From Escherichia coli (GTDB taxonomy: Bacteria; Pseudomonadota; Gammaproteobacteria; Enterobacterales; Enterobacteriaceae), in NCBI RefSeq assembly GCF_003334335.1, contig NZ_QOWQ01000161.1: 678 nt of DNA. One strand, given 5' to 3'. Shown here piece after piece: positions 1 to 678 of the stretch. A model generated the notes under the pieces. That model did not search any database and was not told where the DNA came from. It saw only the letters and a program-made list of their open reading frames with translations. How positions within the stretch are numbered: the stretch's first letter is position 1; the number at the start of each line of letters is the position of its first letter. Made by a program: the position numbers and the translations under genes.

Positions 1-125
1 TCCGGGATATAACGGCGGTTCTCCGGCAGGAAAAACTCCCTCGCCAGTATCACACTGTGTTCCTTCAGTAACGCCTGCAGACCATACTCCAGATAGCGAT
101 TCCTGGTAGCCAGAATCACCTTCAT
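1..125 (-). CDS. Hypothetical protein, N-terminal 41 codons only (gene continues beyond window start); possibly a receiver-like/LuxR-family-type regulator N-terminus (weak)
   Basis: ATG at 125..123 with a well-spaced SD. Manual translation gives MKVILATRNRYLEYGLQALLKEHSVILAREFFLPENRRYIP with no stop through position 3. It is absent from the supplied ORF track, presumably because the visible part is short. The pattern hydrophobic-L-x-T-[RK]-[ND]-x-[YF]-L-x-x-G-L-x-x-LL resembles the beta1-alpha1 start of atypical receiver-like domains (compare GadE MIFLMTKDSFLLQGFWQL, recalled from memory). The product call is speculative. Confidence 0.4.
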   Translation of the reverse strand, partial: MKVILATRNRYLEYGLQALLKEHSVILAREFFLPENRRYIP

Positions 126-132
126 CGCAGCA

Positions 133-139
133 CCTTCCT
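133..139 (-). promoter_or_regulatory. Shine-Dalgarno sequence (AGGAAGG) for the downstream minus-strand gene
   Basis: Minus-strand sequence reads ...CATAAAAAACAGGAAGGTGCTGCGATGAAGGTG...; the purine-rich AGGAAGG lies 7 nt upstream of the ATG at 125..123. Confidence 0.5.
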
Positions 140-153
140 GTTTTTTATGCCCC

Positions 154-189
154 ATGAAAAACGGCAGACCAGAGTCCTGCGCCTGCCGT
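154..189 (-). terminator. Putative Rho-independent terminator downstream of the adhesin gene
   Basis: Exact inverted repeat acggcag (161..167) / ctgccgt (183..189) gives a 7-bp GC-rich stem. On the minus-strand transcript it is followed immediately by UUUUU (plus-strand aaaaa at 156..160). The hairpin starts 24 nt after the TAA stop (216..214). The loop is long (15 nt) but can partly pair internally (gcagac / gtcctgc). Confidence 0.45.
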
Positions 190-213
190 CATACTTCATG
201 TCACCTTCAGCAA

Positions 214-678
214 TTAAAACTCGAAGTTCACACCAACGTTCCAGGAGGCATCGCCATCACTGAATGCCACGCCTGCTTTCGCTGCGGTCTGCTCGTTGAA
301 GCGGTAACCCACACCCACTGCCAGTGCCTGCTGGTCGCTGTAACCACCAACCGCTGCCGTGGCGTTGAATTTACCCACACTGTACGGCTGGAACAGACCT
401 GTCAGGGCCGCAGACTGTGCTGCTGCTCGTTTCATTTCCTTGTGGTTTTCATTAATCTGGCGCTGCTGGCTGTCCAGACGTGCTGAATGTTGCTGCAGCG
501 TACGGGTATTGGCTGCAATCGCCTTGCTGTTTTTCTCAATGGATTGCGTGTTACGGGTGACACGGCCATCAATGGCACCAACTGCTGCATCAATACGGTC
601 AGTACGACCAGACAGGGCCACCAGACCATCGTTAACAGAAATGGTGTTCTTTGCACCTTCTGCACGGGTCAGGGTGCC
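214..678 (-). CDS. Trimeric autotransporter adhesin (YadA/Eib-like), C-terminal part: coiled-coil stalk plus YadA-type beta-barrel membrane anchor. Partial: the 5' end of the gene lies beyond the window end; stop codon TAA at 216..214.
   Basis: Manual minus-strand translation in the frame of the 214..621 ORF is open through to position 678: [154 protein letters not shown]. The last ~70 aa align closely, from memory, with the Yersinia YadA membrane anchor (...[36 protein letters not shown]..AGVAY....NASFNIEW). Present are the conserved GG pair (343..348), alternating small/hydrophobic beta-strand residues, and a C-terminal aromatic residue (Phe) typical of outer-membrane beta-barrel insertion signals. 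Upstream of the anchor is a polar, Ala/Gln/Asn/Arg-rich segment typical of a trimeric autotransporter stalk. Confidence 0.85.

Follow-up and report, generated by a model that had tools for sequence, protein, structure and literature searches.

A probable Rho-independent terminator between the prophage adhesin gene eib and orf-156 of Escherichia coli

How is the transcription of a prophage adhesin gene brought to an end when the next gene on the same strand starts only a short distance downstream? The stretch of DNA analysed here raises this question. It is 678 nt long (hereafter, the window), comes from Escherichia coli (GCF_003334335.1, contig NZ_QOWQ01000161.1), and all its features are read on the minus strand. 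The original prediction had noticed an inverted repeat and a run of U residues in the gap between the two genes, and had proposed that the adhesin is terminated, or attenuated, separately from the downstream gene. Our answer is that the hairpin and its U-run very probably constitute a Rho-independent (intrinsic) terminator of the adhesin gene, eib, carried by the minus-strand, eib-sense transcript. The reasons for this reading, and the others that have to be weighed against it, are given below.

The eib locus and its record in GenBank

Judged from its sequence, the upstream gene is eib, the gene of an immunoglobulin-binding trimeric autotransporter of lambdoid E. coli prophages, since the window matches Escherichia phage PhiR5_2 (PV340546, 39102-39779) with 100% identity, and the eibA, eibC and eibD loci (prophages P-EibA/C/D of E. 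coli ECOR-9) with about 96%. The matching gene is annotated eibA in AF151091 and eibC in AF151674. The product has a coiled-coil stalk and a YadA-type membrane anchor and ends in ...NVGVNFEF; it matches PHROG 9547, and its match to the NCBIfam YadA-autotransporter anchor model is weak and below cut-off (67.8 bits, for a curated cut-off of 750). eib is a prophage-borne adhesin and serum-resistance factor of some STEC and commensal E. coli. One E. coli chromosome is also 100% identical to the window, and related sequence was found in 42 of 5,426 complete E. coli genomes, chromosomal in all of them and typically in several copies; a search of plasmids with the window returned no match. A scan of the GTDB species representatives with a motif of the eib end gave five chance matches only, all in unrelated organisms, and the element is therefore absent from these representative genomes.

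The gap between the two genes is 88 nt long, as originally measured (Table 1). Behind it stand orf-156, which encodes a 156-aa protein of PHROG 6585 ('unknown function'), and orf-60 (PHROG 9340, function unknown), and searches of both against Pfam, NCBIfam, PADLOC and PDB sequences gave no match. The two genes follow eib in every locus examined (for example at 5554-6206 of locus L002). No orf-156 promoter was found within the window at the threshold of the scan, nor any sigma-70-like site in the ~30 nt available between the hairpin and the orf-156 ATG. More distant orf-156-like genes also occur without eib, downstream of collagen-like tail-fibre genes and with a different, canonical terminator in front of them. 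In a group of loci (L032-L045), we observed a tract of 7-10 G, varying from locus to locus, about 60-70 nt upstream of the orf-156-like match (~1130-1145 of L039); the tract, which looks prone to slippage, has a canonical terminator (AAAAACCGGAGCCCGGCTCCGGTTTTT) on one side and a truncated orf-156-like ORF on the other, and a collagen-like tail-fibre gene lies upstream of it.

Other terminator-like hairpins with long T-runs were seen in locus L002 on the minus strand, opposite to eib (3417-3434, 3544-3565, 3713-3734 and 6213-6231). The last three share a similar GGGGAGC...CTCCCC (or GCTCCCC) stem, and two of the hairpins with this stem follow 49-aa minus-strand ORFs (3596-3745 and 3799-3948) located between the tail-fibre assembly gene and eib.

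The hairpin behind eib has a history of its own in the databases. A 29-nt 'stem_loop' stands between eib and orf-156 in each of AF151091 (P-EibA) and AF151674 (P-EibC), and a 'stem_loop' feature lies beneath the match in AF151675 (P-EibD) as well. The one in AF151674 (2509-2537), ACGGCAGGCGCAGGACTCTGGTCTGCCGT, equals window 189-161 at every base; in the eibA version the arms are unchanged, the loop differs and the T-run counts eight T. These three records belong to the prophages P-EibA, P-EibC and P-EibD of E. coli ECOR-9 (Sandt & Hill 2000). As the feature is present in a deposition of 2000, the element has been on record since that year: the hairpin is an ordinary, already known element, annotated some 25 years ago. 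The primary papers on eib are Sandt & Hill 2000, 2001 and Sandt et al. 2002; the other Eib papers, as far as they were consulted, mention neither the terminator nor the downstream genes. The GenBank records also carry a second 'stem_loop', upstream of eib (for eibC, at 844-872 of locus L003, AF151674). In eibC this second feature, an inverted repeat with an extreme AT content, lies in the promoter region; it is not a hairpin of the terminator type and could be a regulatory site.

Table 1. Features of the window and the evidence on which each is placed (position 1 is the first base of the window).
Feature	Position	Strand	Evidence or remark
eib gene, 3' part (last 465 nt)	214..678	minus	ORF list; identity to PhiR5_2 and eib records
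eib stop codon TAA	216-214	minus	ORF list; sequence
eib/orf-156 spacer, 88 nt, carrying the predicted terminator and the orf-156 ribosome-binding site	126..213	minus	
CAUGAAG, complementary to UUUUCAUG (159-153), extension of the hairpin base	194..200	minus	61-nt fold
Predicted terminator hairpin, core	161..190	minus	RNAfold; GenBank 'stem_loop'; pairing kept in variants
U-rich tract UUUUUCAUG	153..161	minus	Sequence; expected transcript release site
Shine-Dalgarno-like AGGAAGG, 7 nt 5' of the orf-156 ATG	133..139	minus	Sequence
orf-156, 5' part (first 125 nt; ATG at 125-123)	1..125	minus	orf-156A/C annotation

Structure of the hairpin and its variation among relatives

The perfect 7-nt inverted repeat that had first drawn attention is present as ACGGCAG (161-167) and CTGCCGT (183-189), with 15 nt between the arms. 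These 15 nt had been taken for a long loop and the structure, accordingly, for a non-canonical terminator, an interpretation that the RNAfold structure contradicts, as the loop is mostly paired. Two pairs beyond the repeat, G182·U168 and C181-G169, complete a lower stem of 9 bp (189-181 with 161-169) with a single G·U, at 182·168; above it come G180 as a 1-nt bulge, an upper stem of three pairs (C179-G170, A178-U171 and G177-C172) and the tetraloop GACU at 176-173. A lower stem of 9-10 bp, a bulge, an upper stem of 3 bp and a loop of 4 nt fall in the canonical range.

For the 30-nt core the folding energy is -19.0 kcal/mol (z = -3.5). Folding of the minus strand had been suggested as a check on the original prediction, and a stable hairpin was indeed obtained: the 61-nt context reaches -26.7 kcal/mol against -12.7 +/- 2.6 for its shuffles (z = -5.5), and none of the 200 shuffles equals it. 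The fold of the hairpin exceeds chance. Furthermore, the hairpin region is the most stable 60-nt window on both strands of the 678 bases (-29.5, for a mean of -13.65 and a standard deviation of 4.43). On the eib-sense strand the stem begins 24 nt past the eib TAA; on the complementary strand the hairpin is followed by no T-run and the fold is weaker (-14.2 versus -19.0). A simple terminator scan catches the site solely through a sub-optimal 5-bp pairing, and in the window it found two candidates, barely above the 0.7 +/- 0.8 of the shuffles. A search of the window against Rfam (E <= 10) gave nothing at the hairpin and only a chance match to CC0196 (E = 3.3) on the plus strand, at 239-283.

Six of the 9 nt of the U-rich tract are U, and U161 doubles as the closing base of the stem. 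Five U had been placed straight after the 7-bp stem. A run of five U does exist (161-157, followed by CAUG), but its first U belongs to the stem arm, so that one may count either a 7-bp stem and four U or a 6-bp stem and five U. With so short a tract, termination in the window variant may be incomplete. In the 61-nt fold, part of the tract pairs with CAUGAAG on the other side of the hairpin; this pairing is missing in variant V11, so its conservation is incomplete, and it concerns the read-through RNA only, as termination does not need it. The U-run also belongs to another inverted repeat, rich in A and U (GTTTTTTATG / CATGAAAAAC as read on the plus strand; window 140-162), through which it can pair with the A-run that precedes the orf-156 ribosome-binding site. 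The resulting second hairpin (153-162 with 140-149) was set aside as a candidate switch, with only -3.2 kcal/mol and a downstream half that is not conserved among eib alleles.

Is the pairing kept in other copies of the locus? Spacers were taken from annotated phage and E. coli records, from IMG/VR loci through ORF-156, and from viral and metagenome contigs through a search motif placed just upstream of the hairpin, which leaves the stem itself unconstrained. The alignment holds 12 distinct full spacers, those of eibA and eibC and eight further spacer types among them, and the wider set, drawn from viral, gut-metagenome and E. coli DNA, about 118 instances, which amount to 18 distinct 75-nt sequences. 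In the more distant loci of the spacer set the downstream ORF-156 proteins are 67-70% identical to that of the window, and the spacer measures 87-92 nt in all relatives.

In the 12 aligned spacers the 9-bp stem comprises 106 pair cells, and each of them holds a standard pair. Of the nine stem pairs, five are invariant; in the remaining four only one of the two bases changes, always to give G·U or U·G, and the alignment contains no double compensatory change. These one-sided changes keep the pairing only in the eib-sense RNA, as they leave A·C mismatches on the opposite strand, and the weaker plus-strand fold is consistent with such strand-specific pairing. The change at 182·168 is found on two backgrounds (V1-type and V6), which makes at least five events, all compatible with pairing; by our own estimate, all five would keep pairing by chance with a probability of about 0.004-0.03 if a random substitution is assumed to preserve it in 1/3 to 1/2 of cases. 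No stem-breaking variant was found in the ~118 instances. Conservation taken alone is nevertheless modest evidence, because the sequences are closely related and the changes are one-sided wobble changes.

Around the arms the relatives diverge to varying degrees. Their stems are uninterrupted over 9-10 bp and the core energies of all variants range from -15.7 to -19.3 kcal/mol. The loop drifts in sequence and in length (14-16 nt between the 7-bp arms) and the T-run counts 5 to 8, so that the U-tract of the window variant is at the weak end of the range. A d'Aubenton-Carafa-style score gives the tails of the relatives 3.9-5.3, values that serve to rank the variants only, the formula being uncalibrated as a predictor. 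Between the eib stop codon and the 5' arm, 35 nt show almost no variation, whereas past the T-run the next 30 nt belong to several unrelated sequence types; the AGG-rich motif before orf-156 is kept in the variants. The sharp change of conservation at the putative terminator places the hairpin at a boundary between mosaic modules.

Termination, read-through and competing explanations

Intrinsic terminators are expected to form, on the transcribed strand, a stable G+C-rich hairpin with a short loop and a stem of about 5-14 bp, followed without a gap by about 7-9 nt rich in U, and to lie downstream of the stop codon, in sense orientation and clear of the terminating ribosome. The hairpin behind eib has each of these properties, and in addition its pairing is kept in relatives in which the loop drifts. 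Moreover, no structure competes for its 5' arm: the hairpin is present in both the MFE and the centroid structures of the nascent RNA that ends with it. The analysis establishes its structure, position, stability, strand-specific conservation and prior annotation; termination itself, how efficient it is and any part played by read-through or antitermination are inferred. The proposal that the adhesin is terminated separately from its neighbor is thus supported, as a prediction drawn from anatomy, position, conservation on one strand and earlier annotation.

How would termination proceed? Once RNA polymerase has reached the U-rich tract (161-153), the hairpin (190-161), rich in G+C, would fold in the exit channel, the weak rU:dA hybrid would be disrupted and the transcript would be released about 50-60 nt past the eib stop codon, its 3' end being afterwards shielded by the same hairpin. 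In a lysogen, transcripts from the eib promoter would mostly end at 161-153, and orf-156 and orf-60 would be transcribed only via read-through or, in lytic growth, via antiterminated late transcription, a step proposed from the general biology of lambdoid phages. If an intrinsic terminator closes eib, orf-156 would be reached in these two ways only; orf-156 and orf-60 appear to depend on read-through or on late antitermination by the phage, a small point that bears on the timing of their expression. The element would mark the 3' end of the eib transcription unit, and its value lies mainly in a correct annotation rather than in a new kind of element.

Could the terminator be a partial one? Attenuation instead of full termination is plausible. 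A leaky or regulated terminator which fixes a low ratio of orf-156 and orf-60 to eib, or which a factor can override, with the genes functionally coupled, seems to us possible but rather doubtful. Such an attenuator would account for the start of orf-156, only ~30 nt past the U-tract and with a good Shine-Dalgarno sequence but no promoter-like site, for the fact that eib, the hairpin, orf-156 and orf-60 come in the same order at every eib locus examined, and for the mere five U of the window variant. However, an attenuator or a riboswitch should possess a mutually exclusive antiterminator or a conserved leader peptide, and neither was found. The nascent RNA offers no antiterminator pairing that competes with the hairpin. 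The one candidate leader, a 25-aa ORF (MKYDGRRRTLVCRFSWGIKNRKVLR, window 122-199, minus strand) which spans the hairpin and whose TGA overlaps the orf-156 ATG (ATGA), is found in each of the three possible frames with respect to orf-156 when the 12 variants are compared, and many of these lack its Shine-Dalgarno-like GAAGG; as its frame is not conserved, this ORF is not a conserved coding region and probably not a gene. It was rejected as a leader peptide, and the regulatory or attenuator alternative offered by the original prediction is left without support from either side. Besides, other variants have 7-8 U, which predicts stronger termination, and the distant orf-156-like genes do without eib and sit behind a different terminator. 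A stricter version, in which the terminator is tuned to be partial and is the sole gate for orf-156 and orf-60 in the lysogen, Eib and ORF-156 being made at a fixed ratio and functionally linked, we hold to be improbable. If it were true, ORF-156 might act for instance in the biogenesis or the regulation of Eib, and the length of the T-run (5-8) would set allele-specific ratios.

The two remaining explanations dispense with termination altogether. The hairpin could stabilize or process the mRNA, as a barrier to 3' exonucleases, a site at which RNase III/E cuts a longer transcript of eib and orf-156, or the source of a 3' UTR small RNA, without stopping the polymerase. Indeed, in the full-length RNA the pairing of the U-tract with CAUGAAG yields a nearly continuous helix of ~20 bp (-26.7 kcal/mol), and the 24 nt between the eib stop codon and the stem are highly conserved. 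But this conservation is no higher than that of the adjoining eib coding sequence, V11 lacks the extended helix, Rfam gave no match, and the stem is always followed by a run of 5-8 T, superfluous for a pure stabilizer or processing site; all this makes such a role very unlikely. A DNA-level element, be it the binding site of a dimeric regulator or a recombination joint of prophage modules, is hardly credible, even though the perfect 7-bp repeat and the sharp fall of conservation past the T-run, at a mosaic-module boundary, could be read in this way. The arm changes are asymmetric in DNA, where what is a G·U in RNA becomes a half-site mismatch, and the spacing of the arms varies from 14 to 16 nt, and a DNA-binding site is therefore unlikely; the position after a stop codon and the presence of a T-run likewise speak against a DNA element, and a drop of conservation at terminators is what moron boundaries would be expected to show. 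We retain the intrinsic terminator of eib as the preferred reading.

Comparison with known systems

Morons are accessory genes which bring their own promoter and terminator into the late region of a phage (PMC8065619). Such a gene is expected to be dispensable for phage growth and deviant in composition, and its promoter to be active in the lysogen. In PhiR5_2, eib is an accessory gene of the late/tail region, with tail-fibre genes before it and lom after it, all reading the same way, and its composition is deviant, its upstream region and 5' half having 36-39% GC against 52-65% in the flanks. Just 5' of the eib ATG lies a promoter-like site, TTGAAC-17-GATAAT, with 9 of 12 consensus positions, such matches being as frequent in the region as expected by chance. 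Activation of eib by IbrAB is stated in the title of a cited paper. The gene is best read as a self-contained 'moron', closed by the predicted terminator, within the late, tail-fibre part of a lambdoid prophage genome.

The GenBank 'stem_loop' of the eibA, eibC and eibD records is the same element in the same position between eib and orf-156, with no structural difference; it marks only the 7+15+7 repeat, to which our folding adds the pairs inside the '15-nt loop'. Like canonical intrinsic terminators of E. coli, the hairpin has a G+C-rich stem of ~9-12 bp, a tetraloop and an adjoining U-tract, and lies on the sense strand soon after a stop codon. It differs from them in its shortish U-tract, with five U before CAUG, and in a stem interrupted by a bulge and a G·U; termination at this site is predicted.

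Among lambdoid morons, lom and bor of lambda and the HK97 moron are examples. eib resembles the morons of these phages as an AT-rich gene for a surface protein amid tail-fibre genes, with a promoter-like site upstream and a predicted terminator downstream. It differs in that the inserted block extends beyond this terminator, with orf-156 and orf-60, and in ECOR-9 also eaa, downstream in the same orientation. Since orf-156 and orf-60 come after it without a visible promoter, the boundary of the eib unit is less clean than that of the textbook morons.
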